64,000 bases of DNA. Source: Candidatus Kapaibacteriales bacterium. GTDB lineage: Bacteria > Bacteroidota > Ignavibacteria > Kapaibacteriales > UBA2268. The translations under genes and the position numbers were made by a program. The DNA lies in NCBI GenBank assembly GCA_965661945.1, contig CBFIFP010000001.1:853592-917591 (forward strand), given 5' to 3'. Below, one piece after another: positions 19,501-32,790 of this stretch (position 1 is its first letter; every line of letters begins with the position of its first letter). Under the pieces are notes generated by a model. The model saw nothing but the letters and a program-made list of their open reading frames with translations, ran no database searches and was not told where the DNA came from.

Positions 19501-22500
19501 ACTGGATTAAACCCAACAAATTCAAACACCATTGAAGAATCTATCGAACCAGGAATTACCTTTGTCCTACCAAATTTATGGAACAAACCTCCATTAAAAG
19601 AAAAACTATTAATAACATTTAATGTGTCTAATCTTGTAAATCTATCTACCCTTGCGGTTAATGCACCTTGTATAAATTCTGTAACTTTACCATTATTATA
19701 ATTTCTTTTTGCAGGGAATCCCCTCCAAAATCTTAACTCCCTAAACTCTCCCTCAAATCCATTACTCCTCTTCCCACCCTGCATTATTGGAGTATATCCA
19801 AGATACATTCTTTTATTATTTAACGTGTCATAATTCAAATCATAAAAATCTTCTTCGCCGAAATCGTTTTCTAATTCAATACCATCTACCCATAATAAAT
19901 AAGGACTTTCCTGATTAAATGGATTAAAATAAAAAGCTATATGAACCCAAGCCGTGTCTGTTGTTGTTGAAATCGGCTCTGGAAGTCCTTTATTCGCATC
20001 AGATATTGCTCGCTTTAATTGATTATTGCTATTTCTGTAGGTGAACTCTAATAGCCCAAATTGATTCAATGACAAGTCATATTTAATATCATTTGTTAAA
20101 GAATCAAGCATTGAAAGAATTGGGAACACACTTTCACTTTCTGTAGGGAATCTATGTGGCTTTATCCAAGTTTCAATAAAAATTCCTTCCTTATTTGGCA
20201 GTAATTTACTTGTGCTATCTGAATAAATTTTATTACTTTTTGTCTTACGTAATGAAAATTCTCTTGAAACTATAAACTCATCAGTAGTGTTTGAAATAGT
20301 TCTTTGATTATGATTTTCGTGTCCTGTAATGCGAAGCATCACTCTCTTTTCGTATGGCTCTACATCTCTTAAACTTCCTCCAACATCATTACTTTGGTAT
20401 GGTTCCCAAGTTGCTCGGTTATCTTCCACATCAATCGCTCCATTACCACCAAGTTTTAAGCCCTGCTGGTTTTCCACCTGTACCCAAGTTGAGCCGCTAT
20501 TAGTTGAAAACTCTAAATACAAATCTCGTGAAAATCTTTGAGAATTATTCCCCAATCCAAAACTTATAAATCTAATGGGATAGTTCTGACCCTGCTCTAT
20601 AACTAAGCCAGTTCCTCTACTCGGAGATGTAATCCTTCCGTGTGGCAAATCTGGAACAAATTTTGGAATCTCGCTTATTTGTGTTCCTACAATATGTTGA
20701 AGATTATTTATTCCATTCTGAAATTGCGTATTTGTAGCATAATCTTTTAAATCATCACTAAGTTTATAATATAAATCTAAACCGGTTCTTGTATCCGGAA
20801 GCTGATTAATATCAATTGTAGCTGGATTTATAACTCCGGTAGAATACTTTCTAATTGAATCCTGACCAAAAGCCGTCCTCCATACTTTCACTTCTTTAAT
20901 TGCACCTGCGAAGTAATTTTTAGCATCTAACTTATTATTCGGATTAACTCCTACCCAAATTGGATGGTCTGTAATTAATAGTCTGTAATCGTTATTTTTA
21001 TTAATTATATCAGTTGCAACCAACTCGCCATCAACATATAAATATGCAATTGAGTTTTCCAATATTGCCGAAATATGTGTCCAATTTCTTGAAAATCCAT
21101 CTTCATTATCTGAAAATGCACTTGCTTTTATTGGGTCTTCTGCTACAAGATTTACAATATATCCGCCTGCACCCCTATTTTGATTTTCTCTTGCTCGGAA
21201 AGCAGGATATTTTCCATCCTTCAAATATAAAAGCCAAGCACCTTCTTTACTGCCAAATATTTCAGCTTGATTAGGCCCACCAGACGATGCAACAATTCCA
21301 ACTTCACCTGAATTTAATTTAGTTGGATTTACCCATGCTTCAATTGTTAGATGTGTCGGATTTGAAAATGTTTTTTCTGTTTTAAAATATTCATTTGCAC
21401 CATTCAAAAAACTTGTGAAATATACTCCCATTGCTTGAGTTTGTGCAGATTCTGAAACAAGATTAGTTTTTTCTCTATCTTCAATATTATCTTCTACACT
21501 ACCGCTAAGCATTGAAATTCTTAACTTTACATTGCTATTTCTTTCTCTAATATTTGTTGGTTTTGACCATAAAACTCTCATTGGGTTTCTGTAATTTGAT
21601 GTTCCAATAGCTTGCCCAGCAGATGAAGTTATAACTAAAGTTCCAACCCCTGTAGGTCTTGCAATATCACCAGAACGATAAAATACTGAACTACCTAACG
21701 CCCGATTATTGTGGTCGGCTACTCTTCCTATTTCTTTCCAACTTCCATCATTATATTCAAAACTATATGCAATATTACCGTTTAATATCCCAGGGTTTGC
21801 CTGCGGATTAACCGAACGCTCAAAATAAATTGGATAGCCAACTCCTTGATATGTATTTGCAAGTGATAAGTATGGCTTATCTCTATCAATTACTTGTCCT
21901 GTGAATTTTGGTGATAAAAGCGTTACACCGATAATCGTGAAGTTGCTTGGCTGTTTTAATGTTGCTTTGCTTGTGATATTAGTTGAGTTTACATCAAGAA
22001 CATTAGTTGCTGGGTTTGAAGTTAAAAATTTTATTCCTGTTTGAGTGTTAATTGCTGGGCTGTTTATAATATCAAATACAACTTTGCCAAGGAAAGAACC
22101 ACGTCCTGTTTGAAGTGGAATGAAACCCCCGCTCCCCATACTGATTAATCTTGCTCGGATGCCAATATTAGTTTGATTATTCAATGCCGATAAACTGGCA
22201 TATCCATTTGTGCTGTTGTAAACCGAATTAATTTGAATAAGTGGGTTTGCTTGGTCTATATTACTTGAGATTGAATCAGCAATACCATTCACGGTATTTG
22301 TGTTTGGTCTTAGAAAAGCAGAATTATACTCTAACCAAATTTGTGCATCACCAATAACCGGCGGATTTGGCTTTAGCGATTTAACCCAAATTTCTGCGTG
22401 TATTTGGTCATATTTGCGACGTTGGACAATATTGAACTCATAGTCTTGTCCTATAACATCAATAGCAAACATAAGCAAAAGCATTGCTATTACTACATTT

Positions 22501-22508
22501 CTTGACAT
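16578..22508 (-). CDS. Giant secreted T9SS cargo protein (1976 aa) with a LamG-like domain, a dockerin-like repeat pair and a T9SS CTD; paralog of the 2140-aa protein
   Basis: Signal peptide MLLLMFAIDVIGQ. LamG block LTIEAWVNPTKL...AWLLYLKDGKYPAFRA...IAYLYVDGELV. Dockerin AMVAGDANQDGRIDSTDIQDIL...DLNADSIVNAVDRIL. Shared block HLPIMSRFPAPFKYKGEDKSTWAIESGWDF. C-terminus ...GIYFLVLETDDGVFFEKFIKD (T9SS CTD). Confidence 0.8.
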   Translation of the reverse strand: MSRNVVIAMLLLMFAIDVIGQDYEFNIVQRRKYDQIHAEIWVKSLKPNPPVIGDAQIWLEYNSAFLRPNTNTVNGIADSISSNIDQANPLIQINSVYNSTNGYASLSALNNQTNIGIRARLISMGSGGFIPLQTGRGSFLGKVVFDIINSPAINTQTGIKFLTSNPATNVLDVNSTNITSKATLKQPSNFTIIGVTLLSPKFTGQVIDRDKPYLSLANTYQGVGYPIYFERSVNPQANPGILNGNIAYSFEYNDGSWKEIGRVADHNNRALGSSVFYRSGDIARPTGVGTLVITSSAGQAIGTSNYRNPMRVLWSKPTNIRERNSNVKLRISMLSGSVEDNIEDREKTNLVSESAQTQAMGVYFTSFLNGANEYFKTEKTFSNPTHLTIEAWVNPTKLNSGEVGIVASSGGPNQAEIFGSKEGAWLLYLKDGKYPAFRARENQNRGAGGYIVNLVAEDPIKASAFSDNEDGFSRNWTHISAILENSIAYLYVDGELVATDIINKNNDYRLLITDHPIWVGVNPNNKLDAKNYFAGAIKEVKVWRTAFGQDSIRKYSTGVINPATIDINQLPDTRTGLDLYYKLSDDLKDYATNTQFQNGINNLQHIVGTQISEIPKFVPDLPHGRITSPSRGTGLVIEQGQNYPIRFISFGLGNNSQRFSRDLYLEFSTNSGSTWVQVENQQGLKLGGNGAIDVEDNRATWEPYQSNDVGGSLRDVEPYEKRVMLRITGHENHNQRTISNTTDEFIVSREFSLRKTKSNKIYSDSTSKLLPNKEGIFIETWIKPHRFPTESESVFPILSMLDSLTNDIKYDLSLNQFGLLEFTYRNSNNQLKRAISDANKGLPEPISTTTDTAWVHIAFYFNPFNQESPYLLWVDGIELENDFGEEDFYDLNYDTLNNKRMYLGYTPIMQGGKRSNGFEGEFRELRFWRGFPAKRNYNNGKVTEFIQGALTARVDRFTRLDTLNVINSFSFNGGLFHKFGRTKVIPGSIDSSMVFEFVGFNPVYSGNKPYMRIVEPQEFTTIKQTNTNLKIRWVGFGLDNNGFTAGQRFGNPPSLQFSEKGGAGNSAVPYQYVGSNYFTGNTRNSLSLPDSNNYRFKEFGNNIIFAASVNISIANPDLNNDNLFIDQGALPIVTDNLRFRLTSRYVVESTPFQVRSESPLYTVIPGENFTLRVLLEGKHRGRTSPIEQIKTKYEEGGIKVTLLEDNYGKPGTKLASAEAVRGYEEQNVFHQNSGQRNFANLPFLFLDVNDGNYWVLVEQINHLPIMSRFPAPFKYKGEDKSTWAIESGWDFTSWNGSNNNFLVEGENPWTQQRYTAFGNGEAIKDSALWVSTGLNFNDGLIDAVVSPFPAMVAGDANQDGRIDSTDIQDILINTGGSNIQYDLNADSIVNAVDRILTQRNIGKVSSLGEYNYLVYGNSDTFTSSIDFDDKNEEQINKLNRLNKFNKTKEINSLLNNVAYEITSQTTVNNDIATVEFFIKSSGADLYLGNASFAFTFDTLKLDYLNYDNSGILFSNNQEAGYLNSFSAPNENTTLPYKNMRTIEIVLAQDKNGSLVPDIASSLGKLQFKIKTDDAIIQFNWHNSSIVYDNQRQNVNPLGIKEIISPIKQFDVRLLNPDGTKNFGVGQQIELKWVNEGNPIQLEYFNGTTWQKITDSVFSKEAESFEWRLPNNEIENARVRIIDASLSIELVRSEPFRIERRFGQIVSPSSNDRIYKGGEFVQVYFSTTGYDKIDIEYTEDGGDSWKVVKKGVDADSEKFSWTFPRTNTNVFYFRILSGNEIIDISDRIRVLNGSLNINTPNSSTEWNAGSNERVRWTSAGVDRFTLQFSLDGGVNWLDISRNVNATARYYNWDIPSIITDNAMIRAIWSDDPEMLYDMTSPFAIDLSSSTEFTQNQEKIFKLVNFESINNSIKINSKRNIKVNAKVYDIRGQLTTEIKTYFTLGNNVLYLNNNLTNGIYFLVLETDDGVFFEKFIKD

Positions 22509-22627
22509 ATTTCAACTCAATTTTATAAACAACACTACTAAGATGTCAATTAATGTGCCACTTGTTTTTTTTAGATATTACAAAATTGAGGAATATCTAT
22601 TGAAAAGTAAATAGGAGGAAATACTGA
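22437..22627. repeat. Direct repeat A (~191 bp). It covers the first ~20 codons, RBS and promoter region of the 1976-aa giant gene and is ~93% identical to 31022..31212.
   Basis: Aligned by eye. ...cctataacatcaatagcaaacataagcaaaagcattgctattactacatttcttgacatatttcaac...aatgtgccacttgttttttt...attgaggaatatctattgaaaagtaaataggaggaaatactga recurs at 31022-31212. Confidence 0.85.
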
Positions 22628-22696: not shown

Positions 22697-23113
22697 CTAC
22701 TTGCTGTTAAGATTTAAATTCTTTATCTTTTTAACTTTGTCTTTATATTGTTTAATAAAAAAGTAAGTTAAATTCATGTAGTAAATTAAATTTAAACCAA
22801 CAAATAAATAATTTAAAATTTCTTTACTTTCAACTAAAAAATTTAGCAAAAAAGTAATAGAGATTATTACAATTAAAAAACTGTGCACCAAATTTAAATC
22901 AAATTCTGATGAATCAATTTTATTTTGATTATTATCCAAATTTGAAATTATTTTTAAAATCAAATTCTGAAAAATAATAAAAGAAAACATCACCATTTGA
23001 CTTTTAAAATTTTTGATTTCCAAAACATTTTCTTCAAAAAATGGAATCAAAAATATTTCAATTAATAGTATAATTGAAAATATTTGAATAAGTGTTTTTA
23101 ATGTATTTTTCAT
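22697..23113 (-). CDS. Small multi-pass membrane protein (138 aa), a candidate immunity protein of cassette 1
   Basis: Several hydrophobic helices (IFSIILLIEIFLIPFF, VMFSFIIFQNLILKII, FLIVIISITFLLNFLV). It sits directly downstream of the lipoprotein remnant and overlaps it by 4 bp. Confidence 0.5.
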   Translation of the reverse strand: MKNTLKTLIQIFSIILLIEIFLIPFFEENVLEIKNFKSQMVMFSFIIFQNLILKIISNLDNNQNKIDSSEFDLNLVHSFLIVIISITFLLNFLVESKEILNYLFVGLNLIYYMNLTYFFIKQYKDKVKKIKNLNLNSK

Positions 23114-23262
23114 ATTAATCCTTTACCATAAGTCAAAAGCATCCCAGATTGTTTCAACTGCTTCACCAATTCCTTTACCGGCGGTTCCTCTTTACAAGAC
23201 CATAGAAAAGTTGATAAAAATATCAAAGAAACAATGCTTAGTTTTTTTATAGTTATGCGTGT
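23110..23262 (-). pseudogene. Truncated remnant of the cassette lipoprotein: signal peptide plus ~25 aa only
   Basis: RBS AAGGAG followed by an ATG. Translation MTRITIKKLSIVSLIFLSTFLWSCKEEPPVKELV..., then stop. Paralogs continue for ~270 more aa. Confidence 0.6.
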
Positions 23263-23321
23263 CATAACATCTCCTTTAAAAAAGTTTAACAAAAAATTTC
23301 AAATATTTTTAAAAATTTCTG

Positions 23322-23380
23322 CTAAATTAAGCACTGATAAATTAAGCACTGCTAAATTAATATGCAAGAACTTTTTTTTC
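23322..23380. repeat. 15-bp tandem repeat array (~2.5 units: GCTAAATTAAGCACT-like) upstream of cassette 1
   Basis: gctaaattaagcactgataaattaagcactgctaaattaatatgcaag. The same unit family occurs upstream of all five cassettes. Confidence 0.8.
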
Positions 23381-23394
23381 ACAAAAGAGAAAGT

Positions 23395-23445
23395 TTTCCA
23401 CATTTTGTTGAGATTATTGGGGTTGGGTGGAAATTTTTTTTTAAA
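23395..23445 (-). promoter_or_regulatory. Conserved cassette box (TTTTCCACA-TTT-TTGA-ATTATTGGGGTTGGGTGGAAA), occurrence 1
   Basis: Nearly identical sequence at 28138-28190. Related copies at 26575-26625, 30783-30835 and 32740-32790. It contains the inverted repeat TTTCCAC...GTGGAAA. Confidence 0.5.
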
Positions 23446-23518
23446 ATATGGTTATAAAATAAAACATAATTATAATAGTCAATAGCAATAGTAACGCAAA
23501 ATAAATAAAAGATAAAAT

Positions 23519-23707
23519 ATGTTAATATTTGATGAAAAAATAGAAGCAAATAAATTAATCTTAAATCTACCAAATGAATTTATTGGTAAAGAGTTGGAAG
23601 TGCATATCTTTAGTAAAAAAGATAAAAACAAAATTAAATTCAAAAATTTAAGATTATTGAAAACAAAAGAATATAAATTTAATCGTGATTTAGCAAATGA
23701 ACGATAA
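23519..23707 (+). CDS. Type II antitoxin (VapB-like), 62 aa
   Basis: Small ORF overlapping the downstream PIN-domain gene by 11 bp. Classic TA operon arrangement. Confidence 0.55.
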   Translation: MLIFDEKIEANKLILNLPNEFIGKELEVHIFSKKDKNKIKFKNLRLLKTKEYKFNRDLANER

Positions 23708-24104
23708 AGTTTTTATTGATTCTAATATCTGCATATATTGCTATTCTGATGATGAATTAGAAAAATCAGAAATTGCAAGAAAAATAATTATTAAAAATAA
23801 TTCATTTACAAGTATTCAAGTATTAAAAGAGTTATCAAATACTTTAATTAAAAAATTCAAATTAGATTTTAAAAATATTGAAAATATTATAAAAGAACAA
23901 ATTGAATTAAATAATGTTTATTTAAATAATGAAACAGATATTTTAAATGCTTTAAAAATATCAAATAAATACCAATTTAGTTTTTATGATAGTTTAATTA
24001 TATCTTCTGCTATATCTACAAATTCAAATATATTATATTCTGAAGATATGCAACACAATCAGATGATTGAAAGTAAATTAAAAATCATCAACCCGTTTTT
24101 ATGA
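23697..24104 (+). CDS. PIN-domain toxin (VapC-like ribonuclease), 135 aa
   Basis: N-terminal VFIDSNICIY (first acidic PIN residue) and C-terminal FYDSLIISSAI motif. Confidence 0.7.
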   Translation: MNDKVFIDSNICIYCYSDDELEKSEIARKIIIKNNSFTSIQVLKELSNTLIKKFKLDFKNIENIIKEQIELNNVYLNNETDILNALKISNKYQFSFYDSLIISSAISTNSNILYSEDMQHNQMIESKLKIINPFL

Positions 24105-24111
24105 TTATCTC

Positions 24112-24345
24112 TTATTTTGAATAGAATAGAATTAAGTAAAAAACTAATCTTCTACCCTTCGGTGTTGGAATTTCTAGGTTCTCATTTTTAGCTACTTCTA
24201 ACCATAACTCAATAGCATCGTTTATATTATTTAGAGCATCAAATTCGGTATCACCATGAGCCATACAACCCGGTAATTCTGGGACATCAATAACGAAACA
24301 ATCGTCTTCATCGCTCCAGTATATTATTTTTTCATATTTATTCAT
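24112..24345 (-). CDS. HicB-family (UPF0150-like) antitoxin, 77 aa
   Basis: IIYWSDEDDCFVIDVPELPGCMAHGDTEFDALNNINDAIELWLE matches the HicB/UPF0150 signature (YSxxIEWSDEDxxYVAxVPELPGCxAxGDT). Confidence 0.65.
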   Translation of the reverse strand: MNKYEKIIYWSDEDDCFVIDVPELPGCMAHGDTEFDALNNINDAIELWLEVAKNENLEIPTPKGRRLVFYLILFYSK

Positions 24346-24590
24346 TTTCTTCCCAACTGAATGAAAAGATGTAAAAAATTTTTATTATATCTTTTTTGTC
24401 TTACAGCATCAACTTCCTTGATTATCTCTTCCATAGATATATCATTTGGATTTGTTTTTAGCTTTGCTAACGTTTTTAAAAATCTATCATCAACGTCATC
24501 TGAAACAATCTTAGTTATATTCATTGTTTCTAAATCGTTTAATAGATTTTTAGCAAGAGGATTATTTAATTCTATTGATAATCTTTCCAT
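24342..24590 (-). CDS. Small antitoxin-like protein (82 aa); paralog of the antitoxin paired with a PIN toxin at 28584..28805
   Basis: MERLSIELNNPLAKNLLNDLETMNITKIVSDD... is ~85% identical to the 28584..28805 product. It overlaps the downstream HicB-like gene by 4 bp. Confidence 0.5.
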   Translation of the reverse strand: MERLSIELNNPLAKNLLNDLETMNITKIVSDDVDDRFLKTLAKLKTNPNDISMEEIIKEVDAVRQKRYNKNFLHLFIQLGRK

Positions 24591-24711
24591 TTTATCTTTT
24601 AATTTATATATTTTAAATAAAGACGTAGAATTAGAATACTTTATTATTTTGAATTTAATTTATAAAATATTGAAAATAGATATTCGTTAATAGACAAAAC
24701 AAAGAATAACT

Positions 24712-24915
24712 ATGCAAGAAAATTTAAAATCAAATATTATAAGCAAAATAAATGAATTAAATGATACAGATGTATTATTCGAAATAGATTCTTTATTGCA
24801 AAATCATAAAAAAATGACACTCGAAGAATATCAGTTAAAAATCAACAATGCTGAAAAAGATATTTTGGAAAATAACCTTTATTCTTCTGAAGAAATATCA
24901 AATTTACTATTATGA
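24712..24915 (+). CDS. Type II antitoxin (ParD/RelB-like), 67 aa
   Basis: Small acidic protein whose stop overlaps the start of the RelE/ParE toxin gene (ATGA). Duplicate at 28928..29131. Confidence 0.55.
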   Translation: MQENLKSNIISKINELNDTDVLFEIDSLLQNHKKMTLEEYQLKINNAEKDILENNLYSSEEISNLLL

Positions 24916-25208
24916 AATATATTGTTTCCTGGACAAATTCTACGAAAATTGACCTTCAAGAAATTTTAGATTATTATTTAATAAATGAAAATTTTAGTAT
25001 AGCTAAAAACCTATTAAATAAAATATTAAAATCCGTGACTTTATTAGAAAGGAATCCCAAACTAGGAAAATCTGAAACTTTGTTAGATGGTGATTACAGA
25101 TTTATTCAATCAGGAATTTATAAAATAGTTTATAAAATAAATAATAAACGAATATATATAATAGCAATATTTGATAACAGAAGAAACCCAGATGAATTAG
25201 TTATTTAG
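24912..25208 (+). CDS. RelE/ParE-family toxin, 98 aa
   Basis: ...LLDGDYRFIQSGIYKIVYKINNKRIYIIAIFDNRRNP is the hallmark C-terminal region of RelE/ParE toxins. Near-identical copy at 29128..29424. Confidence 0.75.
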   Translation: MKYIVSWTNSTKIDLQEILDYYLINENFSIAKNLLNKILKSVTLLERNPKLGKSETLLDGDYRFIQSGIYKIVYKINNKRIYIIAIFDNRRNPDELVI

Positions 25209-25227
25209 TGCAATTATTTTCTTATTA

Positions 25228-25262
25228 AGTAACATCAACAAGGGGTTTTGATGCCCCTTGTT
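25228..25262. terminator. Recurrent hairpin element CAACAAGGGG-ttttgatg-CCCCTTGTTG (bidirectional terminator between convergent genes)
   Basis: Perfect ~10-bp stem. The same element is found at 26773-26810 and 29445-29480. Confidence 0.6.
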
Positions 25263-25277
25263 GAGTGATAAGTTGTT

Positions 25278-25478
25278 TTATTTTAAATTATCTATATTTT
25301 TATTTGAAAAATAAATTACATTCCCAAGTAAAATCCCTAAAATAATTTCAAATAAAAATGTTGGTTCATAGTCTTCAAAAATAAATATTGCAACATTAAA
25401 AGCAAAGACTGAAAATATTATACACATTAGCATTGTTAAAATGTAATTAATTTTTCTATTTTTTGTTATTTTTTTCAT
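25278..25478 (-). CDS. Small membrane protein (66 aa, 2 TM), a candidate immunity protein of cassette 2
   Basis: Hydrophobic helices YILTMLMCIIFSVFAFNVAIFIF and LFEIILGILLGNVIYF. Directly downstream of the cassette-2 lipoprotein. Confidence 0.5.
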   Translation of the reverse strand: MKKITKNRKINYILTMLMCIIFSVFAFNVAIFIFEDYEPTFLFEIILGILLGNVIYFSNKNIDNLK

Positions 25479-25505
25479 ATTTATAATTCTCTTATTATAA
25501 TATAA

Positions 25506-26419
25506 TTACCAATCCAACCACCAAGGTAGCCCACCGGCTGCTTCTCCAATAGCTGCTTTAACTGAGTTTATTCCTGCTCCTACCATAGCAGCACCAAGGG
25601 TAATAGCTGCTATTCCACCTGGTCCAGTAGCAACAACCGCTTCTGGATTTGTAGCAAAAAACATCAAAGCTCCACCAGCTCCACCTACTGCTCCACCGAT
25701 ATCTTTTCCCATAACATTTTTTGCAGCAGGACTTAAATCTAATAATTTTGTTTTTGAGGAATTAGATTTATTTTTATTAATACTTATTTTGATAGTTTCA
25801 TCTACATTACCCAATTCTACCCAATCATCTTAATTAGAAGTCCAATAATTTATTGTATATTTTGCTACCATTAATGTTGCACCTACTATATATTTTTCTA
25901 TCAAACTATCTAAACTATATGCTACTGGTATTTCAGAATCACAATATTGATTAAATTGTACTAAAGTCATATTTTCATCAACATATTCATTAAATACACT
26001 ATCCAAATCAGATAACATATTAAATGCTTCTTCTGTTATATCTGGATTTGAGTTCAAATAATCACTTAATGTAGCGTAAATATTAACTTCCATAGAGTCA
26101 ATATATGACAAATCGTAATTTTTATCTTCCGCAAAATTTATGACTTCATTATAAATAAAATCATTAATTGAATCTTGTGGATGAGGATCAATTTCATTTT
26201 TTATTCGAAGCAATTTGTTGTAAATGTGTCCATACATTCATTATGATGAGTACCTACATCATTTACAGCAGTTAAATAATCATTATATGTTATTGTAGCA
26301 GAATTAGTTATCCTAATCCCATCACCACTCCTAACTGGCGGTTCCTCATTACAAGAGAATAATATTGTTGATAATAAAATCATAGAATAAATGCTTAGTT
26401 TTAGTGTTATGTATTTCAT
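25506..26419 (-). pseudogene. Cassette-2 surface lipoprotein with a Gly-zipper/microcin-like C-terminus, disrupted by one -1 frameshift (~26215) and one in-frame TAA (25827-25829)
   Basis: Three ORF-track pieces (26201..26455, 25830..26237, 25506..25814) are collinear with the intact paralog 27108..27977. The N-terminus is MKYITLKLSIYSMILLSTILFSCNEEPPV. The VGTHHNE motif is present. The C-terminus is ...GGAVGGAGGALMFFATNPEAVVATGPGGIAAITLGAAMVGAGINSVKAAIGEAAGGLPWWLDW. Confidence 0.7.
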
Positions 26420-26469
26420 AATCACTCCTTTTATTAATTTAACAAAATTATTCAAATAAAATTTGAATT

Positions 26470-26560
26470 TCTGCTAAATTAAGCAATGCTGAATTAAGCA
26501 ATGCTGAATTAAGCAATGCTGAATTAAGCAATGCTAAATTAAGCAATGCTAAATTTAGTA
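26470..26560. repeat. 15-bp tandem repeat array, ~5.5 units of GCTGAATTAAGCAAT / GCTAAATTAAGCAAT
   Basis: ctgctaaattaagcaatgctgaattaagcaatgctgaattaagcaatgctgaattaagcaatgctaaattaagcaatgctaaatttag. Confidence 0.9.
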
Positions 26561-26574
26561 GAAAATTATTTTTT

Positions 26575-26625
26575 TTCCACACAAGGAGTATTTTTCCACA
26601 ATCTATTGATATATATAGATATATA
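26575..26625 (-). promoter_or_regulatory. Conserved cassette box variant (TTTTCCACAATCTATTGATATATATAGATATATA)
   Basis: Shares TTTTCCACAAT-TATTGATAT with the other four cassette upstream regions. Confidence 0.45.
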
Positions 26626-26772
26626 AGTTTATTTTTTTTTATTATTTTTTTTATATATGGACTTAGGAAGCATAAATTGGTTAATAGTTGTGTTTGTTTT
26701 TGGGTTTTGATTAATATTCAACATCGGAGATGTTGAATAGAATAGAATTAATTTAATATAATTAATAAATTA

Positions 26773-26810
26773 TTTAATACAACATCAACAAGAGGTTTTG
26801 TTGCCCCTTG
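26773..26810. terminator. Recurrent hairpin CAACAAGAGG-ttttgttg-CCCCTTGTTG
   Basis: Same element family as 25228-25262. It lies between cassette 3 and the upstream region of cassette 2. Confidence 0.5.
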
Positions 26811-26829
26811 TTGAGTAAAATTTGTTTTA

Positions 26830-27135
26830 TTACAAATTGTTCTTGCTTTTTATTTTGCTTTTTTTATATTTTTCTAGCTCAAAACAAAAAATACCACACA
26901 TCAAGCCAAAAACAATTGAAACAATAATTACTGAAGAGTCATAAACATCATCAGTTCCAAAAAGTAAAATATAGACAATTATTTGTAACAAAAACATTTC
27001 AATTATTGAAAATATAGTGAGTTTAATTCGAGATTTATATTTAAAATCAAAATATATTTTTATAACTGATAATAAAATCTTCTTTGAATTATGCTCTTTC
27101 ATATTTATCAACCAGTTATGCCTTGCAACCACCAT
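26830..27135 (-). CDS. Small membrane protein (≤101 aa; the start may be the internal MKEHNSKK), a candidate immunity protein of cassette 3
   Basis: Two hydrophobic helices (LTIFSIIEMFLLQIIVYILLF; VIIVSIVFGLMCGIFCF). It overlaps the 3' end of the lipoprotein gene. Confidence 0.5.
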   Translation of the reverse strand: MVVARHNWLINMKEHNSKKILLSVIKIYFDFKYKSRIKLTIFSIIEMFLLQIIVYILLFGTDDVYDSSVIIVSIVFGLMCGIFCFELEKYKKSKIKSKNNL

Positions 27136-27977
27136 GGAACATCTATCACAATAGAAAGTGCTGATACACCAGACGCAGCTGCACCACCGACTAGTCCTGC
27201 ATTAATTGTAATGGCAATAGCTACTGCTGGTCCTCCAACCCAACTATAGTATAGTCCGTGAACAGCACCTCCTACTGCCCCAGCAACATCTGCTGATATG
27301 ACTCTTTTAGCTTCTGGGCTTAATGCTAATAATCTATTATTATTTTTATTCTGATGTTTCAATTCATTCTTTATTTGTATAGAACTTTCTTCCTCAAGCA
27401 AGTCAATCCAATCATCAAAATTAGTATTCCAATAATTAGCCGAATTTTTTGCTACACTTAATGCAATACCAACAACGTAAGCTTCAGTGATTGAATCTAA
27501 TGAATATGCTATGTTTATATTTGTATTGCAATACGTTTCAAATTGCATAAGAGTTATTCCATCATTAGAATACACATTAAAAACACTATCTAAACTAATC
27601 AGCATATTTTTTGCAGATTGACTTAAAATAGTATCAGTTGTTAAAATATCATTAATTGCAATTGGGTTAAAATAAAAATCTGATATCCCAGTAGTATCAA
27701 CATTGGAATTATCAAACCCATTAACATAAGCAAAAGATAGTGAATTTCCTATTAGGTAATCCAGTAGAGGAATATCTGGTTGTTCTATTTCATCGTTTTT
27801 TATTTTAGAAAGCAAAGTATACATACTGTCTAAGTACTCATTATGTAAAGAACCAACTGTATTTACATCATTTGTAAAATCATACAAACTTACACTATTT
27901 AATATTCTTAAATTTTGTGTAGAATTAACCGGCGGTTCCTCTTTACAAGAGAATAAAATTGTTGATAATAATATCAT
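27108..27977 (-). CDS. Cassette-3 surface lipoprotein with a Gly-zipper/microcin-like C-terminus (289+ aa). The body is intact, but the ancestral ATG of the signal peptide is ATC here, so the ORF track starts at an internal Met.
   Basis: Upstream in frame: AAAGGAGctgttATCAAGCACATAACACAAAAACTAAGCATTTTTTCT... = (I)KHITQKLSIFSMILLSTILFSCKEEPPV. Conserved VGSLHNEYLD motif. C-terminus ...RVISADVAGAVGGAVHGLYYSWVGGPAVAIAITINAGLVGGAAASGVSALSIVIDVPWWLQGITG with GxxxG zippers. Confidence 0.7.
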   Translation of the reverse strand: MILLSTILFSCKEEPPVNSTQNLRILNSVSLYDFTNDVNTVGSLHNEYLDSMYTLLSKIKNDEIEQPDIPLLDYLIGNSLSFAYVNGFDNSNVDTTGISDFYFNPIAINDILTTDTILSQSAKNMLISLDSVFNVYSNDGITLMQFETYCNTNINIAYSLDSITEAYVVGIALSVAKNSANYWNTNFDDWIDLLEEESSIQIKNELKHQNKNNNRLLALSPEAKRVISADVAGAVGGAVHGLYYSWVGGPAVAIAITINAGLVGGAAASGVSALSIVIDVPWWLQGITG

Positions 27978-28064
27978 AGAAAAAATGCTTAGTTTTTGTG
28001 TTATGTGCTTGATAACAGCTCCTTTATCTTAATTTAACAATTATTCAAATAAAATTTGAATTTC

Positions 28065-28125
28065 TGCTTAATTAAGCAATGCTAAATTAAGTAATGCTAA
28101 ATTAAGATGCAAGAACTTTTTTTTC
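28065..28125. repeat. 15-bp tandem repeat array (~2.5 units) upstream of cassette 3
   Basis: ctgcttaattaagcaatgctaaattaagtaatgctaaattaagatgcaag. Confidence 0.8.
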
Positions 28126-28137
28126 AAAAAAAGAGAA

Positions 28138-28190
28138 AGTTTTCCACAATTTATTGATATTATTGGGGTTGGGTGGAAATTTTTTTTTGG
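28138..28190 (-). promoter_or_regulatory. Conserved cassette box, occurrence 3 (nearly identical to 23395-23445)
   Basis: agttttccacaatttattgatattattggggttgggtggaaatttttttt. Confidence 0.5.
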
Positions 28191-28192
28191 TA

Positions 28193-28600
28193 TTAATAAT
28201 CTTTTAAGATAAATTCAAATTCACTATATTTTATGATTTTAGTATATCCAATTTGATTTAAAACTAATAAGTCATAGTCCCCAGTAATTATAAAATCTGA
28301 ATTGCTATCAACTGCAAGATTTAAAATAAAATTGTCTTTTCTATCTCTACAAATTTTTATGTTTGATTCAATGTGAATTTGTAAACCATATTTTTTCAAT
28401 AAATCTATAATATTATTGACATCATCTTCTTCAAAATACTTTTTAAATTTTTTTCTTTTAGATACATCTTTAATTTCATCTAATAGTTCATCAGAATAAA
28501 CTAAAGTAATAATATTATTCTTCAATAAATTATAAATCACTTCGAATTTATTTGATATTAAAAAATAAATCCAAACATTAGTATCAAATATTATTTTCAT
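28193..28600 (-). CDS. PIN-domain toxin (TIGR00305-like putative TA toxin), 135 aa
   Basis: MKIIFDTNVWIYFL (first PIN acidic residue) and DFIITGDYDLL near the C-terminus. It overlaps the upstream antitoxin gene. Confidence 0.7.
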   Translation of the reverse strand: MKIIFDTNVWIYFLISNKFEVIYNLLKNNIITLVYSDELLDEIKDVSKRKKFKKYFEEDDVNNIIDLLKKYGLQIHIESNIKICRDRKDNFILNLAVDSNSDFIITGDYDLLVLNQIGYTKIIKYSEFEFILKDY

Positions 28601-28805
28601 TATATCTTTTCTGTCTTACAACATCAACTTCCTTGATTATTTCTTCCACAGAAATATCATTTTTTTTAGTCTTTAGCTTAGCTAAAGTTTGTAAAAATCT
28701 TTCATCAACGTCATCTGAAACAATTTTAATCAAATTAAGTGTTTCTAAATCATTTAATAGATTTTTAGCAAGCGGATTAGTTAATTCTATTGATAATCTT
28801 TCCAT
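28584..28805 (-). CDS. Antitoxin partner of the PIN toxin (73 aa)
   Basis: MERLSIELTNPLAKNLLNDLETLNLIKIVSDD... It overlaps the PIN gene by 17 bp. Paralog of 24342..24590. Confidence 0.55.
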   Translation of the reverse strand: MERLSIELTNPLAKNLLNDLETLNLIKIVSDDVDERFLQTLAKLKTKKNDISVEEIIKEVDVVRQKRYNENNI

Positions 28806-28927
28806 TTTTTTTTATTTAATTTATGTATCTTAAATAAAGACGAAGATTAGAATACTTTATTTTTTGAATTTAATTTATAAAATATTGAAAATAGATATTC
28901 GTTAATAGACAAAAACAAAGAGTATCT

Positions 28928-29131
28928 ATGCAAGAAAATTTAAAATCAAATATTATAAACAAAATAAATGAATTAAATGATACAGATGTATTATTTGAAA
29001 TAGATTCTTTATTGCAAAATCATAAAAAAATGACACTCGAAGAATATCAGTTAAAAATCAACAATGCTGAAAAAGATATTTTGGAAAATAACCTTTATTC
29101 TTCTGAAGAAATAGCAAATTTACTATTATGA
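28928..29131 (+). CDS. Type II antitoxin (ParD/RelB-like), duplicate of 24712..24915
   Basis: 67 aa, ~98% identical to the 24712 copy. It overlaps the downstream toxin start. Confidence 0.55.
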   Translation: MQENLKSNIINKINELNDTDVLFEIDSLLQNHKKMTLEEYQLKINNAEKDILENNLYSSEEIANLLL

Positions 29132-29424
29132 AATATATTGTAAGGTGGACTAATTCTGCGAAAATTGACCTTCAAGAAATTTTAGATTATTATTTAATAA
29201 ATGAAAATTATAGTATTGCTAAAAACCTATTAAATAAAATATTAAAATCCGTGACTTTATTAGAAAGGAATCCCAAACTAGGAAAATCTGAAACTTTGTT
29301 AGATGGTGATTACAGATTTATTCAATCAGGAATTTATAAAATAGTTTATAAAATAAATAATAAACGAATATATATAATAGCAATATTTGATAGCAGAAGG
29401 AACCCAGATGAATTAGTTATTTAG
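29128..29424 (+). CDS. RelE/ParE-family toxin, duplicate of 24912..25208
   Basis: 98 aa differing at ~4 residues from the 24912 copy. The flanking non-coding sequence is also duplicated. Confidence 0.75.
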   Translation: MKYIVRWTNSAKIDLQEILDYYLINENYSIAKNLLNKILKSVTLLERNPKLGKSETLLDGDYRFIQSGIYKIVYKINNKRIYIIAIFDSRRNPDELVI

Positions 29425-29444
29425 TGCATTTATCTTTTTATTTA

Positions 29445-29480
29445 GTAACATCAACAAGGGGTTTTGATGCCCCTTGTTGA
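29445..29480. terminator. Recurrent hairpin CAACAAGGGG-ttttgatg-CCCCTTGTTG (third copy)
   Basis: Identical to the element at 25228-25262. Confidence 0.6.
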
Positions 29481-29524
29481 TTTGGGAATAAAACAAGAAT
29501 TATTTATAATATTTTAATAAAATC

Positions 29525-29785
29525 TTACTTTTTTAAATTACTATCTAAGTTTTTATTTCTTTTATTAGCTATAAAATAAATAATATAGCCACCAAAAGAA
29601 CCTGCAATTATAGATCCTAAAATAGATGGTTTACTTTTAGTCAAATTAAAACCATACATTATAAAGTCAATTACTAAAAGCAAAATGATTGTAAAAATCA
29701 TTATATTTACAACTCTTTTAGTTAGAAATCTTCTAAATTTTAGAAAATTATTTACTAATTTATTTAAAGCCAATCTAACCACCAT
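29525..29785 (-). CDS. Small membrane protein (86 aa, 2 TM), a candidate immunity protein of cassette 4
   Basis: IMIFTIILLLVIDFIMYGF and ILGSIIAGSFGGYIIYFIA helices. It overlaps the lipoprotein 3' end. Confidence 0.5.
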   Translation of the reverse strand: MVVRLALNKLVNNFLKFRRFLTKRVVNIMIFTIILLLVIDFIMYGFNLTKSKPSILGSIIAGSFGGYIIYFIANKRNKNLDSNLKK

Positions 29786-30659
29786 GGAGCTCCTGCAGCG
29801 ATTTTTACTGCCTTTTTCAAAGATTTAGTTCCAGCATAGACCATTGACACACCAATTGCACCAGCAAAAGCACCACCTGGACCTGCAGATAATCCTCCAG
29901 CGATTAATACAGCAAAAGCTCCTTGTTTGGCACCCTCCAAATCCTGATTAATCACATCTTTGCCATCTTGACTTATTTCAAGTAATTTATTACTTTTTGA
30001 ATTAGATTTAGATTTTGAAACCAAATTAGTACTTTCTTCTATATCATTCATAAGGTTAAACCAGTCATCGTAATTTTGATTCCAATAGTTAGCAGTATGT
30101 TTAGCCACTGCAAAAGTTAACCCTATAGAAATTTTTTCTGAAAGACTATCTAAATTATATGCTAAATTTATATTTGAGTTACAATATGAATCAAATTGAG
30201 CAATTGTAATATTATTATTAGCTAATTCAGTAACCATACTGTCTAAATTTAATAACATTTGCTCAGATTGTTCTGTTAAGTTCGGACTTGTTTGTAAATA
30301 CCCTACTATATCTCTTGGATAAATTATTGAAGATGTATCTAAATAATCTAAAATATAACCTTTATTATCAGCAAAATTGTAAACTTCAATTCTTATAAAA
30401 TCATCTATAGATATGTGTGGTTGAGTATCAATTCCTTCTTTAATTCTATATAGTTTTTCATATAACGTGTCAAGAACTTCATTATGATGAAGACCTACCA
30501 TATTGACTGTATCAACATAGCCAGAATAAGTAATATTAGTAGTTAAATTTTGATAGAACTCTCCACCACTTCTAACTGGTTATTCCTCTTTACAAGAGAA
30601 TAATATTGTTGATAATAATATCATAGAAACAATGCTTAGTTTAAGTGTTATGTGCTTCA
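29764..30659 (-). pseudogene. Cassette-4 surface lipoprotein with a Gly-zipper C-terminus. It carries an in-frame TAA replacing the Pro codon directly after the lipobox Cys-Lys-Glu-Glu. The ORF track shows only the piece from the internal Met (29764..30501).
   Basis: ATGAAGCACATAACACTTAAACTAAGCATTGTTTCTATGATATTATTATCAACAATATTATTCTCTTGTAAAGAGGAATAACCAGTTAGAAGT... = MKHITLKLSIVSMILLSTILFSCKEE*PVRSGG, in frame with MVGLHHNEVLD... The C-terminus ends ...GGLSAGPGGAFAGAIGVSMVYAGTKSLKKAVKIAAGAPWWLDWL. Confidence 0.65.
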
Positions 30660-30711
30660 TAACAGCTCCTTTATATTAATTTAACAAAATTATTCAAATA
30701 AAATTTGAATT

Positions 30712-30770
30712 TCTGCTAAATTAAGCAATACTAAATTAAGCAATGCTAAATTAATATGCAAGAACTTTTT
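30712..30770. repeat. 15-bp tandem repeat array (~2.5 units) upstream of cassette 4
   Basis: ctgctaaattaagcaatactaaattaagcaatgctaaattaatatgcaag. Confidence 0.8.
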
Positions 30771-30782
30771 TTTCACAAAAGA

Positions 30783-30835
30783 AAAAGTTTTCCACAAATC
30801 ATTGGGGTTGTTGGGTTTGGGTGGTGAATTAAATT
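30783..30835 (-). promoter_or_regulatory. Conserved cassette box, degenerate occurrence 4
   Basis: gttttccacaaatcattggggttgttgggtttgggtggtgaatt. Confidence 0.4.
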
Positions 30836-31021
30836 TTTTTGATTTGTTAAAATTCAACATCTCCAATATTGTGGGTAGGTGGTAGGTTTATTTTTCTACA
30901 AATATTTTACATCTCCGATGTGGGTTAGAAAATTAAATATATTTGATTTAGATTATTATGATTGAATTTTACAATTATTTATAAATTTCATTGCTTCGGA
31001 GAAGCATAATATTTGTAGCAT

Positions 31022-31212
31022 AATTTACCCCCCTGCCCTACAACATCCATAGCAAACATAAGCAAAAGCATTGCTATTACTACATTTCTTGACATATTTC
31101 AACCCAATTTTATAAACAACACTTTAATAGGTCAATTAATGTGCCACTTGTTTTTTTAGATTTTACAAAATTGAGGAATATCTATTGAAAAGTAAATAGG
31201 AGGAAATACTGA
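31022..31212. repeat. Direct repeat B (~191 bp), a copy of the promoter/5'-end region of the 1976-aa giant gene. It encodes only a truncated signal peptide (MSRNVVIAMLLLMFAMDVVGQGG... then stop).
   Basis: ~93% identity to 22437-22627. The minus-strand translation gives the giant protein's first 20 residues, then diverges and terminates. Confidence 0.85.
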
Positions 31213-31224
31213 GAAAATTAAAAA

Positions 31225-31256
31225 AACAAGGGCAATGATGCCCTTGTTTTAATTAT
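31225..31256 (-). terminator. Hairpin terminator (ACAAGGGCA-atga-TGCCCTTGT) downstream of the 31273..31644 gene
   Basis: 9-bp perfect stem flanked by A/T runs on both sides. Confidence 0.55.
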
Positions 31257-31272
31257 TTTAATATGATTATCG

Positions 31273-31644
31273 TCAAAGTTTCTTTAAAATTGGTGTGATA
31301 ATATCAGACTTAAAATCATTATAACTTAAAATATCTCTCTTAAATCGAGGAAAGTATTCTAATCTAATTTGATCTTTAAATAAATCCAATTTTATAAAAT
31401 ACCCAAAATCATTAAATTTTATTTTACTTTCAAATATGGTTGTATTTTCTTTAGTTGCTAATTTTTTTAAATCAATACCTTTTAATACATCAACAATAAA
31501 TTTATATTTTGTTTTATCATTTGATATATGGTAAACATAATAGGCTCTCCTTTTTCCTGAAAATTTTCGTATTCTGAAATAAGAATATATTAAAAAATTT
31601 ACTATTAGAAATGATAAAGATAAGACAATTAAATTAAATTCCAT
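31273..31644 (-). CDS. Membrane-anchored small protein (123 aa; one N-terminal TM), a candidate immunity protein of cassette 5
   Basis: MEFNLIVLSLSFLIVNFLIYSYF TM helix followed by a charged soluble domain. It lies downstream of the cassette-5 lipoprotein pieces. Confidence 0.45.
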   Translation of the reverse strand: MEFNLIVLSLSFLIVNFLIYSYFRIRKFSGKRRAYYVYHISNDKTKYKFIVDVLKGIDLKKLATKENTTIFESKIKFNDFGYFIKLDLFKDQIRLEYFPRFKRDILSYNDFKSDIITPILKKL

Positions 31645-31662
31645 TTGTTTATTCCTTTGTAT

Positions 31663-32555
31663 TTATTCACAAGGTACAGGTTGTTTACATTGAACACAGT
31701 AGCAAGGCCAAACTGGATCTTCGTCACCTTCTGAGTTAGAAGTTGCAATCCCTAAAATCATTATACCAGAAGTAACAGCAGCACCAAATCCACCTAGTAC
31801 AGTACCTAAGGCATCTGCACCTAAAACTGCAATGGCTTCATTTGCTTGGTCAAGAGCTTCATAATTTGGAGCCATTAATAAACTTGCCGCTTTAGTCTCG
31901 AAACCATTTGGATACCAATATTCTTTCGATTTTCTATATACTGCTTCAAATTTCAGTGCGTTAGAATAGACACTTGTATTTAAGGTATCCCAAGGAAAAT
32001 TTTCAATTCTGTTATTAAAACTAATTAAATCTAAATTTTTATAATCATTTATCATAGGGGATAAAATAGAATAATTAATTGAGTCAATATAATTCATAAC
32101 AAATGCTTCTTCAAAAATATCATCTACATGATCAAATAAAAAATTTAGAACTAAAGTATCATTTAGTTTACTAAATAAACCTACCTCCATAAAAAAATCT
32201 TTGATATTTTCTCTTTGTGAATCTACTTGACTCTCAGAATAAATATTATTTACAATATAATAATCACCCATAATCTCTAAAAATTATCAAGATCACCTAC
32301 AGTTGCAAAAAAATCACCCTCAAAATTATATAACATTAAATGAGTACTATCATGAGGTAAATTGTTATTATGGTAATAAGCTAACAAATTATTGTGTTCA
32401 ACTCCAACACTATCATAAGGATTTGAAAAGGTTGTAGAAGTTGTATAATTAATATCATTCCCAATTTTAGCGAGTGGCTCCTCCTTACAAGACCAAAGAA
32501 ATGTAGATAATAAAATCATAGAAAAAATACTTAGTTTAAGTGCTATGTGTTTCAT
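31663..32555 (-). pseudogene. Cassette-5 lipoprotein family member split into two ORFs (32277..32555 N-terminal signal part; 31663..32271 C-terminal part) by a frame change. Its C-terminus diverges: a Gly/Ala zipper followed by a Cys-rich tail CYCVQCKQPVPCE.
   Basis: N-terminal part MKHIALKLSIFSMILLSTFLWSCKEEPLAKIG...VGVEHNNLLAYYHNN... with RBS AAGGAGttgttATG. The second ORF is in a different frame and ends ...AIAVLGADALGTVLGGFGAAVTSGIMILGIATSNSEGDEDPVWPCYCVQCKQPVPCE. It may alternatively be two genuine genes. Confidence 0.5.
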
Positions 32556-32609
32556 AACAACTCCTTAAATAAATTAAACAAAAATATTACTTTCGTAAAA
32601 AGTAATTTC

Positions 32610-32710
32610 TGCTAATTTAAGCAATGCTAATTTAAGCAATGCTAATTTAAGCAATGCTAATTTAAGCAATGCTAATTTAAGCAATGCTAATTTAAGCAAT
32701 GCTAATTTAA
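32610..32710. repeat. 15-bp tandem repeat array, ~6.5 units of GCTAATTTAAGCAAT
   Basis: ctgctaatttaagcaatgctaatttaagcaatgctaatttaagcaatgctaatttaagcaatgctaatttaagcaatgctaatttaatatcc. Confidence 0.9.
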
Positions 32711-32739
32711 TATCCAAATTATTTTTTTCGATACAAGGA

Positions 32740-32790
32740 TTAGTTTTCCACAATTTATTGATATATATAGATATATAATTAAATTTTTTT
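32740..32790 (-). promoter_or_regulatory. Conserved cassette box, occurrence 5 (TTTTCCACAATTTATTGATATATATAGATATATA)
   Basis: Same as 26575-26625 and related to the boxes at 23395, 28138 and 30783. Confidence 0.45.

Follow-up and report, generated by a model that had tools for sequence, protein, structure and literature searches.

The window analysed here, a 64-kb stretch (64,000 nucleotides) of contig CBFIFP010000001.1 from a Candidatus Kapaibacteriales bacterium, contains five paralogous cassettes, each composed of a lipoprotein gene (helical body, glycine-zipper tail) followed by a gene for a small membrane protein. Upstream of each lipoprotein gene lies a head-to-tail array of a 15-bp unit, and these arrays are the subject of this report. 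The five genes that they serve are all on the minus strand, so in window coordinates each array lies to the right of its gene. Every one of the five lipoprotein genes is damaged whereas the small membrane-protein genes that follow them are all intact (5/5 in both cases), a pattern not remarked on in the earlier note on this DNA (the original prediction, made from the sequence alone).

Tandem Repeats Finder detects five arrays of period 15, with 2.6–6.7 copies, one per lipoprotein gene, and no other period-15 array of comparable score in the 64-kb window. The 13-mer GCTAAATTAAGCA, with up to two mismatches allowed, has 30 matches in the window against 5.3 ± 2.2 in shuffled sequence (none of 100 shuffles reaches 30), and 28 of the 30 fall inside the five arrays. 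The repeat finder and the shuffle test thus confirm the arrays that the original prediction had placed upstream of every cassette, and each of the unit variants listed in it is found in the window. Its coordinates hold overall, except that the three short arrays stop about 20 bp sooner than given there. The distance from array to ATG is 51–54 nt in all five cassettes.

The repeat unit and the surrounding promoter module

The 15-bp unit consists of a 14-bp imperfect palindrome, TGCTTAA-W-TTAGCA, and one free linker base; this palindromic nature is absent from the original prediction. When 55 units from 17 arrays are re-registered on this basis, position 1 (the linker) is T, G or A, position 9 (the centre) is A or T and the other 13 positions are invariant or nearly so. 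Every complete array is built from a distal 11-mer, which lacks the left arm, and two to seven full units; none has fewer than two. Compared across nine promoter types from several species, the units have a mean identity of 93% (minimum 87%), whereas the ~45 nt on each side have 74–75% (minimum 60%).

Array 1 (23320–23360, minus strand as are the other four; Tandem Repeats Finder 23319–23360, 2.8 copies, 92% matches) has a distal 11-mer and two full units, with the GTGC linker type. Array 2 (26472–26557; Tandem Repeats Finder 26472–26555, 5.6 copies, 97%) has a degenerate distal 11-mer and five full units, three of them the variant TTAATTCAGCA. Arrays 3 (28065–28105; Tandem Repeats Finder 28065–28106, 2.8 copies) and 4 (30714–30754; Tandem Repeats Finder 30716–30754, 2.6 copies) each have a distal 11-mer and two full units, and the promoter-proximal unit of array 3, TGCTTAATTAAGCA, is a perfect palindrome. 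Array 5 (32610–32710; Tandem Repeats Finder 6.7 copies, 100%) is a distal 11-mer followed by six identical full units, TTGCTTAAATTAGCA. Hairpin potential differs between the long arrays: array 2 folds at -24.6 kcal/mol with z = -5.4, array 5 with z = -1.2.

In gene orientation the elements around the array follow the same order in all cassettes: a distal block, the array, GCAGAAATT with a short palindrome, a TAnnTTTG box, AAGGAG, the ATG and the signal peptide. The distal block, TGTGGAAAAC followed after ~10 nt by T(G/T)TG(G)AAAAAAA, flanks every array and is kept across species. It lies at 23361–23405 in cassette 1, where the second stretch is TGTGAAAAAAAAG, and at ~26558–26603, 28106–28151, 30755–30800 and 32711–32756 in cassettes 2–5 (all minus strand); the second stretch can also be written TGTG(G)AAAAAAAA. 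An AAGGAG ribosome-binding site precedes each of the five start codons, and the lipoprotein signal peptide, MK(N/H)ITLKLSIFSMILLSTILFSCKEEPP, is near-invariant.

The proximal blocks, also on the minus strand, are more varied. That of cassette 2 (26420–26471) has the palindrome ATTCAAAT-TTT-ATTTGAAT, the -7 box TAATTTTG at 26443–26450 and AAGGAG, and cassette 4 (30661–30713) likewise has the palindrome, TAATTTTG at 30685–30692 and AAGGAG. In cassette 5 (32556–32609) a compensated palindrome, ATTACTTT-TTACG-AAAGTAAT, is followed by TATTTTTG at 32579–32586 and AAGGAG. Cassette 3 (28014–28064) has the same palindrome as cassette 2 and a -7 box broken by a 2-nt deletion (TAATTG), while cassette 1 (23266–23319) has AAGGAG and no exact TAnnTTTG. 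The box is therefore exact in cassettes 2, 4 and 5 and degenerate in 1 and 3, and to that extent the -7 element that had been proposed between array and ATG stands. In the three cassettes with an exact box, TAATTTTG or TATTTTTG lies 31–32 nt from the ATG and the array ends 21–23 bp upstream of the box.

The palindrome between array and -7 box has 8-bp arms and lies at 26452–26470, 28044–28062, 30694–30712 and 32588–32608 (minus strand). Its pairing is kept despite sequence change (ATTCAAAT/ATTTGAAT in cassettes 2–4, ATTACTTT/AAAGTAAT in cassette 5 and ATTCAAAA/TTTTGAAT in the related locus L016), and it is missing from cassette 1 and from the related loci L010 and L016b. It may form a hairpin in the 5' part of the mRNA or serve as a second operator.

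Several features bear on the nature of the box. The octamer TAATTTTG occurs 40 times in the window against 17.8 expected (2.2-fold), standing 12–130 nt upstream of many gene starts. The organism also has genes with the Por_Secre_tail type IX secretion C-terminal sorting domain, and its GltX is nearest to proteins of Ignavibacteria/Bacteroidetes metagenome-assembled genomes (MAGs), with 66–67% identity. A transcription-start-site study of Chlorobi describes a TTG-N17-23-TAnnTTTG-like RpoD motif (bioRxiv 10.1101/172254). The enrichment and upstream placement of TAATTTTG, in an organism of the Ignavibacteria/Bacteroidota group, make a Bacteroidota-type -7 box in the cassettes a plausible prediction. 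The fixed position of the arrays, just upstream of this plausible box and the AAGGAG site, agrees with the original prediction. At such a predicted promoter the array end would coincide with the place for a -33 element or a class-II activator site. Most other gene-proximal TAnnTTTG boxes in the window lack a TTG at -33 spacing, as do those of the cassettes.

Other signals were considered in the same interval. A scan for sigma-70 -35/-10 sites gave fewer sites in the window than in shuffled sequence and is uninformative. A sigma-54 promoter or enhancer was rejected: inspection by eye reveals neither a GG-N10-GC in the stretch from array to ATG nor a fit of the unit to TGGCAC-N5-TTGC; an NtrC-type sigma-54 activator is encoded at 42795–44189. 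Comparison with Rfam covariance models gave only chance matches to eukaryotic microRNA precursors and small nucleolar RNAs, far below gathering scores.

Translated from the plus strand, a unit gives A-(N/K/E)-L-S-N, which resembles a pentapeptide repeat. Since GCT AAT TTA AGC AAT encodes A-N-L-S-N, DNA pattern searches mostly recover cyanobacterial pentapeptide-repeat genes that are unrelated to the locus. Coding on this strand was ruled out because in arrays 2 and 5 the repeat frame is closed two to four codons upstream by a stop codon, and no start codon (ATG, GTG or TTG) comes after that stop. The sole listed plus-strand open reading frame (ORF) over any array is a chance ORF at array 1, antisense to the signal peptide. 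We judge the pentapeptide-repeat likeness to be a coincidence of AT-rich codons.

Array length and cassette content in related strains

Relatives were found by scanning genome and metagenome collections and by fetching contigs through neighbouring proteins. Near-identical strains carrying the module are represented by Logan ERR15116713 (100% identical to the window), ENA KOPF15-1, GCA_964452265.1, ENA JING18-1 and SRR26630446. The module is also present in the related-species MAG Co_bin.282 (GCA_030431515.1), where DNA identity in the gene for the giant neighbour protein falls to 74%, in marine metagenomes of the Joint Genome Institute (JGI) and, as a single cassette at another chromosomal site, in a more distant MAG (L010). 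In all relatives found, the array lies 49–55 nt upstream of a lipoprotein gene with the conserved signal peptide. Distant protein homologues with other signal peptides (L048, L026) lack the array, which indicates that the array belongs to the promoter and signal-peptide module and not to the protein body. In the sequence covered, the repeat is not scattered independently of these genes: within the 64 kb the arrays are confined to them, and the scans of two related MAGs gave an array match at one locus each. The junction pattern has no match in viral contigs, and a phage or mobile origin was rejected on this ground.

The window aligns with the KOPF15-1 strain over 19.5 kb at ~99% identity, with 91 substitutions and ten indel events. 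Only three of the indels exceed 3 bp and all three are in arrays: in KOPF15-1 array 5 is changed by -45 bp, array 3 by +75 bp and array 2 by -45 bp. The KOPF15-1 assembly thus has eight 11-mer cores where the window has three, and four where the window has seven. The difference at array 5 (seven cores in the window, four in KOPF15-1) lies within a 3.5-kb stretch with zero substitutions. The arrays are therefore not invariant across strains, and the suggestion in the original prediction that copy number may vary is borne out, near-identical strains differing by exact multiples of 15 bp. Change in the arrays is much more rapid than at individual nucleotide positions.

Arrays 1 and 4 are of equal length in KOPF15-1 and differ in unit sequence, and the unit variants of array 4 differ in strain L001, a further indication of recombination inside arrays. 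Array 5 has four cores in L001 and in the cassette-5 orthologues against seven in the window, and an array next to a PD40-repeat gene (a WD40-like beta-propeller gene) has seven, four or six cores across strains. Five independent assemblies, one of them a k = 141 MEGAHIT contig, agree on four cores for the cassette-5-type array, which speaks against a fast switch. From these sequences the arrays look like a variable-number tandem repeat (VNTR) of occasional change, not like classical high-frequency contingency tracts. Intact lipoprotein genes are preceded by 3, 3, 3, 4, 4, 4 and 6 cores and damaged ones by 3, 3, 3, 3, 4, at least 5, 6, 7 and 8; the trend is weak, coming from few and non-independent cases, and is not used here as evidence.

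The content of the locus differs between strains as well, and the set of cassettes is different in every strain examined. In JING18-1 (L038) the array beside the PD40-repeat gene joins the cassette-5 distal flank, five cassette-5-type units and one unit of another type to a different cassette. In SRR26630446, contig L051 ends after the PD40-repeat gene and contig L050 starts before a cassette, and both stop in a mixed array. On one side of this mixed array is the cassette-5 distal flank; on the other are a promoter and signal peptide of cassette-1 type and a cassette-3-like body, and the giant gene follows directly. It appears that SRR26630446 has one cassette between the PD40-repeat and giant genes where the window has five, the adjacency of L050 and L051 being deduced from their overlap (L050 1–120, L051 6560–6616). 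The SRR26630446 cassette has a TTG start codon.

The arrays repeat in the same orientation along the chromosome. A crossover between two of them would therefore delete or fuse cassettes, and the tendency of quasi-palindromic units to fold in single-stranded DNA offers a physical reason for array instability. The sequences of the hybrid arrays identify the arrays as probable crossover points between cassettes, which the original prediction did not remark on. No integrase or recombinase is present among the locus genes in any strain, where the only domains are PIN, ParE, HicB-like and YafQ. An integron-like cassette array was rejected on the lack of a recombinase gene and on the position of the arrays, which is internal to the conserved module and away from its ends.

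A second kind of direct repeat is present at the locus. A 90-nt segment at 22447–22536, which covers the promoter of the 1976-aa giant gene and its first codons, recurs with 96% identity at 31034–31123, immediately after the cassette-5 operon; cassettes 1–4 thus lie between the two copies. The pair looks like the scar of a block insertion or amplification. The same giant-gene segment also sits between cassettes in L049.

Proposed stacked operators and competing explanations

The anatomy of the arrays, their fixed position, their restriction to one gene family, the conservation of the unit, the polymorphism in 15-bp steps and the hybrid arrays are observations, and the explanation we prefer is that each array is a stack of operators bound by a dimeric regulator and lying next to a predicted -7 box of Bacteroidota type, the number of sites being reset by slippage and recombination. 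We put its probability at roughly 0.45, which makes it a tentative reading. Each 15-bp unit would be one binding site for a dimeric DNA-binding regulator, and an array would comprise two to seven complete operators and a distal half-site, the stack ending ~21–23 bp upstream of the predicted -7 box. Because the units are identical, direct and quasi-palindromic, they could form hairpins in single-stranded DNA and be gained or lost whole by slippage, so that the number of regulator sites per promoter would differ between strains. Recombination between the arrays of neighbouring cassettes would swap or delete cassettes.

The features that favour an operator stack are the dyad symmetry of the unit, the placement of its variation at linker and centre, its conservation above that of the flanks, the presence of at least two full units in every complete array and the fixed position next to the predicted core promoter. 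Protein binding, promoter position and any effect on expression are inferences. The original prediction had offered operator or activator sites and slipped-strand switches as options, and the palindromic unit fits the former better than a plain slippage spacer.

Several points weigh against stacked operators. Pfam scans of the ORFs around the cassettes, for the window and for related loci, revealed no candidate regulator gene within the locus or next to it; the DNA-binding proteins identified in the window are limited to the sigma-54 activator and the antitoxins of toxin–antitoxin modules, and a Pfam scan of the 187-aa ORF beside the locus in L028 gave no regulator. The palindrome has no single copy elsewhere in the 64 kb, where the only off-array matches are two weak ones with two mismatches, both intragenic. 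Cassettes 1 and 3 have degenerate versions of the -7 box in place of an exact one, and in no cassette is there a TTG at -33 spacing (17–23 nt upstream of the box). Three units of the mixed array in strain SRR26630446 have AACA for the AGCA arm, so constraint on the arms is not absolute. Damaged genes follow most of the longest arrays (7, 8, 6 and at least 5 cores), and some of the copy numbers are taken from short-read assemblies.

The last point raises the question of assembly artefact, in which perfect repeats would have been collapsed by de Bruijn-graph assemblers. Many short-read contigs do end within arrays, and several perfect arrays in short-read assemblies have exactly four cores. However, the differences run both ways within one assembly pair, the ENA KOPF15-1 assembly holds an eight-core array with a ~86-bp run of identical units, and the k = 141 MEGAHIT contig matches other assemblies on four and three cores. 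In Logan contigs of the window's own sample the short array 3 is read through, while the contigs break off in arrays 2 and 5, which are long. Given the two-way differences, the long identical run of eight cores and the behaviour of the Logan contigs, we reject collapse as the explanation and consider it highly improbable. The polymorphism could instead be real and without function, a quasi-palindromic 15-bp repeat having been born once in the shared promoter module and having since expanded, contracted and recombined as a neutral minisatellite with no regulatory role. Identical-unit arrays can form hairpins, which would favour slippage, the homogeneity within arrays fits concerted evolution, and in SRR26630446 arm mutations have been propagated within one array; the longest arrays also stand upstream of frameshifted or stop-containing genes. 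Such neutrality is possible but rather unlikely in view of a unit that is more conserved across species than its flanks (93% against ~75%), varies mainly at linker and dyad centre, never occurs in arrays of fewer than two full units and keeps its position across species. The downstream membrane-protein genes, which the promoters potentially serve too, are moreover intact.

Other alternatives grant the arrays a role and assign it differently, and some of them are compatible with an operator stack. The array could set the distance and helical phase between the distal block (TGTGGAAAAC and A-tract) and the core promoter, a spacer-length switch for which nadA is the precedent (PMC2791445). A conserved distal block does flank every array, and with 15 bp per unit (~1.4 helical turns) copy numbers of 3 to 8 would give many phases. 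A ruler needs no conserved palindromic unit, however, and the copy numbers observed favour no particular parity or phase class, and we regard this as quite unlikely. Alternatively, transcription could start in or just after the array, the units then being tandem promoters, their number the number of promoters, or repeats of the 5' untranslated region (UTR). Adjacent unit pairs read TTG-N17-TAnnTTAG, one mismatch from the Bacteroidota/Flavobacterium consensus, all ten matches to this pattern in the window are in arrays and on the gene strand, and the pairing-conserving palindrome downstream of the array is what would be expected of a 5'-terminal mRNA hairpin. This too is improbable: the TTG takes its first T from the linker, which is G or A in three of nine array types, the seventh position of the box is always A and not T, a closer match to the consensus (TAATTTTG) lies 31–32 nt from the ATG, and the palindrome is missing from cassette 1, L010 and L016b. 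Finally, the hybrid junctions in L038 and L050/L051 and the variation of locus content between strains would suit arrays that act mainly as recombination joints, hot spots of unequal crossing-over that reshuffle toxin-like cassettes and change copy number as a by-product. The ~250 bp of homology around each array makes a special site unnecessary, no recombinase gene is present in the locus and only two or three junctions are informative, which leaves this a doubtful account of what the arrays are mainly for. A fuller version of the stacked-operator reading, in which a dedicated regulator counts the operators, each strain sets the expression of each cassette through gain or loss of 15-bp units and the arrays double as portable joints, would make the locus an expression rheostat and a cassette-shuffling device for toxin-like glycine-zipper lipoproteins of a family not described before from marine Ignavibacteria-like bacteria; this combination is unlikely.

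Arrays of contiguous short operators are known from MetJ metboxes (two to five copies of an 8-bp palindrome) and from the heptads of the pSM19035 omega-repressor. In both, ribbon-helix-helix proteins bind units of 7–8 bp cooperatively, one dimer per unit, and unit number sets affinity. To our knowledge these arrays are fixed for each promoter and are not known as strain-variable VNTRs. The cassette arrays resemble them in having contiguous short symmetric units, to which binding is predicted here from sequence. The vlp, vsp and vsa families of Mycoplasma are, like the cassettes here, clustered lipoprotein paralogues with a near-identical promoter, 5' UTR and signal peptide and divergent bodies; in these families expression is varied by a promoter repeat tract (in vlp poly-A between -35 and -10) or by recombination in the conserved 5' region. 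Unlike these families, which serve host-associated antigenic variation, use a homopolymer in vlp and have no palindrome, the present locus has a palindromic 15-bp unit. As far as we know, expression-varying promoter repeat tracts have been described almost entirely from host-adapted pathogens, with units of 1–7 bp. A promoter VNTR at surface or toxin genes is thus of an already known kind; the non-standard features here are the 15-bp unit with a complete dyad, its presence at every paralogue, the portable module, the putative crossover role and the uncultured, free-living marine lineage.

The upstream region of the toxin operon ctxAB in Vibrio cholerae has TTTTGAT heptads that bind ToxR, ToxT and H-NS, and their number varies by strain and is linked to promoter activity (bioRxiv 10.1101/2021.05.14.444153). 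Both loci have direct tandem repeats in strain-variable number next to the core promoter, which is a predicted one in the cassettes, and the cassettes here are toxin-like by analogy. The ctxAB unit, however, is a non-palindromic 7-bp sequence at a single locus with known regulators, whereas the unit described here is 15 bp long, has a complete 14-bp dyad and forms arrays that belong to a movable promoter and signal-peptide module found at all paralogues. At Neisseria meningitidis nadA, a tract of the 4-bp unit TAAA is a spacer between NadR operators and switches at high frequency (PMC2791445). Like the arrays at their predicted promoters, it is a length-variable tract upstream of the core promoter, flanked by conserved elements; in the cassettes the unit itself looks like an operator, and the strain data suggest much slower change. 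In Haemophilus influenzae, the copy number of 7-bp intergenic repeats at hmw1A/hmw2A is reported to change the expression of surface proteins, the repeats being in the transcribed 5' UTR and acting via mRNA structure and processing (PMC12721329). The likeness is a tandem repeat upstream of a surface-protein gene; the differences are the place and mode of action of the hmw repeats and the size of the unit (15 bp against 7 bp).

If the units are operators, the locus would offer a natural promoter series with two to seven identical sites, suited to studying how site number relates to output, and would show that a toxin and immunity-like arsenal can be tuned from strain to strain in a non-pathogen, too. 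The island that the arrays mark is prone to recombination. Until a regulator is identified or expression is seen to depend on the arrays, the practical value stays modest.

Cassette proteins and neighbouring genes

The lipoprotein genes (all minus strand) are damaged in different ways. In cassette 1 (23110–23265) only a stub of ~51 aa is left of what is a gene of 374–386 aa in L023 and L024. The gene of cassette 2 (25506–26419) has a frameshift and an in-frame stop, and in cassette 3 (27108–28013) the body is intact and the conserved start codon is ATC. A single in-frame TAA at codon 27 interrupts the gene of cassette 4 (29764–30660), and that of cassette 5 (31663–32555) is frameshifted after codon 92, its counterpart in L016 being intact with 297 aa. 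Intact versions of lipoprotein genes thus occur in other strains. The small membrane protein of cassette 1 (22697–23113, minus strand) has 138 aa, and those of cassettes 2–5 are encoded at 25278–25478, 26830–27135, 29525–29785 and 31273–31644. Damaged lipoproteins next to intact membrane proteins resemble an island of orphan immunity genes.

The lipoproteins share the motifs VG..HNE.LD and SANYWN and a glycine-rich hydrophobic tail, and are predicted to be all-helical (AlphaFold; predicted local distance difference test, pLDDT, 74; predicted template-modelling score, pTM, 0.77). The family is small and rare, with seven clusters, one of which is named 'glycine zipper family protein' by NCBI. 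It has no Pfam or NCBIfam match, and a Foldseek search with the AlphaFold model gave no match to a PDB fold. Caulobacter Cdz are glycine-zipper contact-dependent bacteriocins (PMC5380434) and myxobacterial SitA are lipoprotein polymorphic toxins (PMC5562445). The cassette proteins are like Cdz and SitA in surface association, glycine-zipper or lipoprotein anchoring, polymorphic cassettes, a small downstream protein of possible immunity function, decayed copies and strain-variable loci; they have no sequence or fold similarity to either. By this analogy, a polymorphic system of toxin and immunity-like proteins is a reasonable guess.

Toxin–antitoxin modules (PIN, ParE, HicB-like) lie between the cassettes. 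Genes for PIN-domain proteins are at 23697–24104 and 28193–28600 and a HicB-like gene at 24112–24345. The segments 24378–25208 and 28593–29424 are duplicates, 88–96% identical over the stretches compared, each with a small minus-strand ORF and a pair formed by a 67-aa ORF and a ParE-family toxin. After the cassette operons a GC-rich hairpin, CAACAAGGGG...CCCCTTGTTG, recurs at 25235–25264, 26785–26814, ~29445–29480 and 31223–31250, and looks like a shared, partly bidirectional terminator.

Three consecutive giant ORFs of 2140, 2544 and 1976 aa (1828–22508, minus strand) adjoin the cassette island. The precomputed annotation of an orthologue of the 1976-aa protein has Laminin_G_3 matches, and the tail of this protein resembles, by eye, a type IX secretion sorting domain and is a candidate for one. 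On the other side, at ~36366–37100 (minus strand), an OmpA-like gene is split differently by strain: it is read as 158 aa in the window and as 87 and 235 aa in L001, and is intact in L042 and L046, where the product of 336 aa includes a beta-barrel domain. Clustered substitutions and an indel of 1 bp are found close to this gene.

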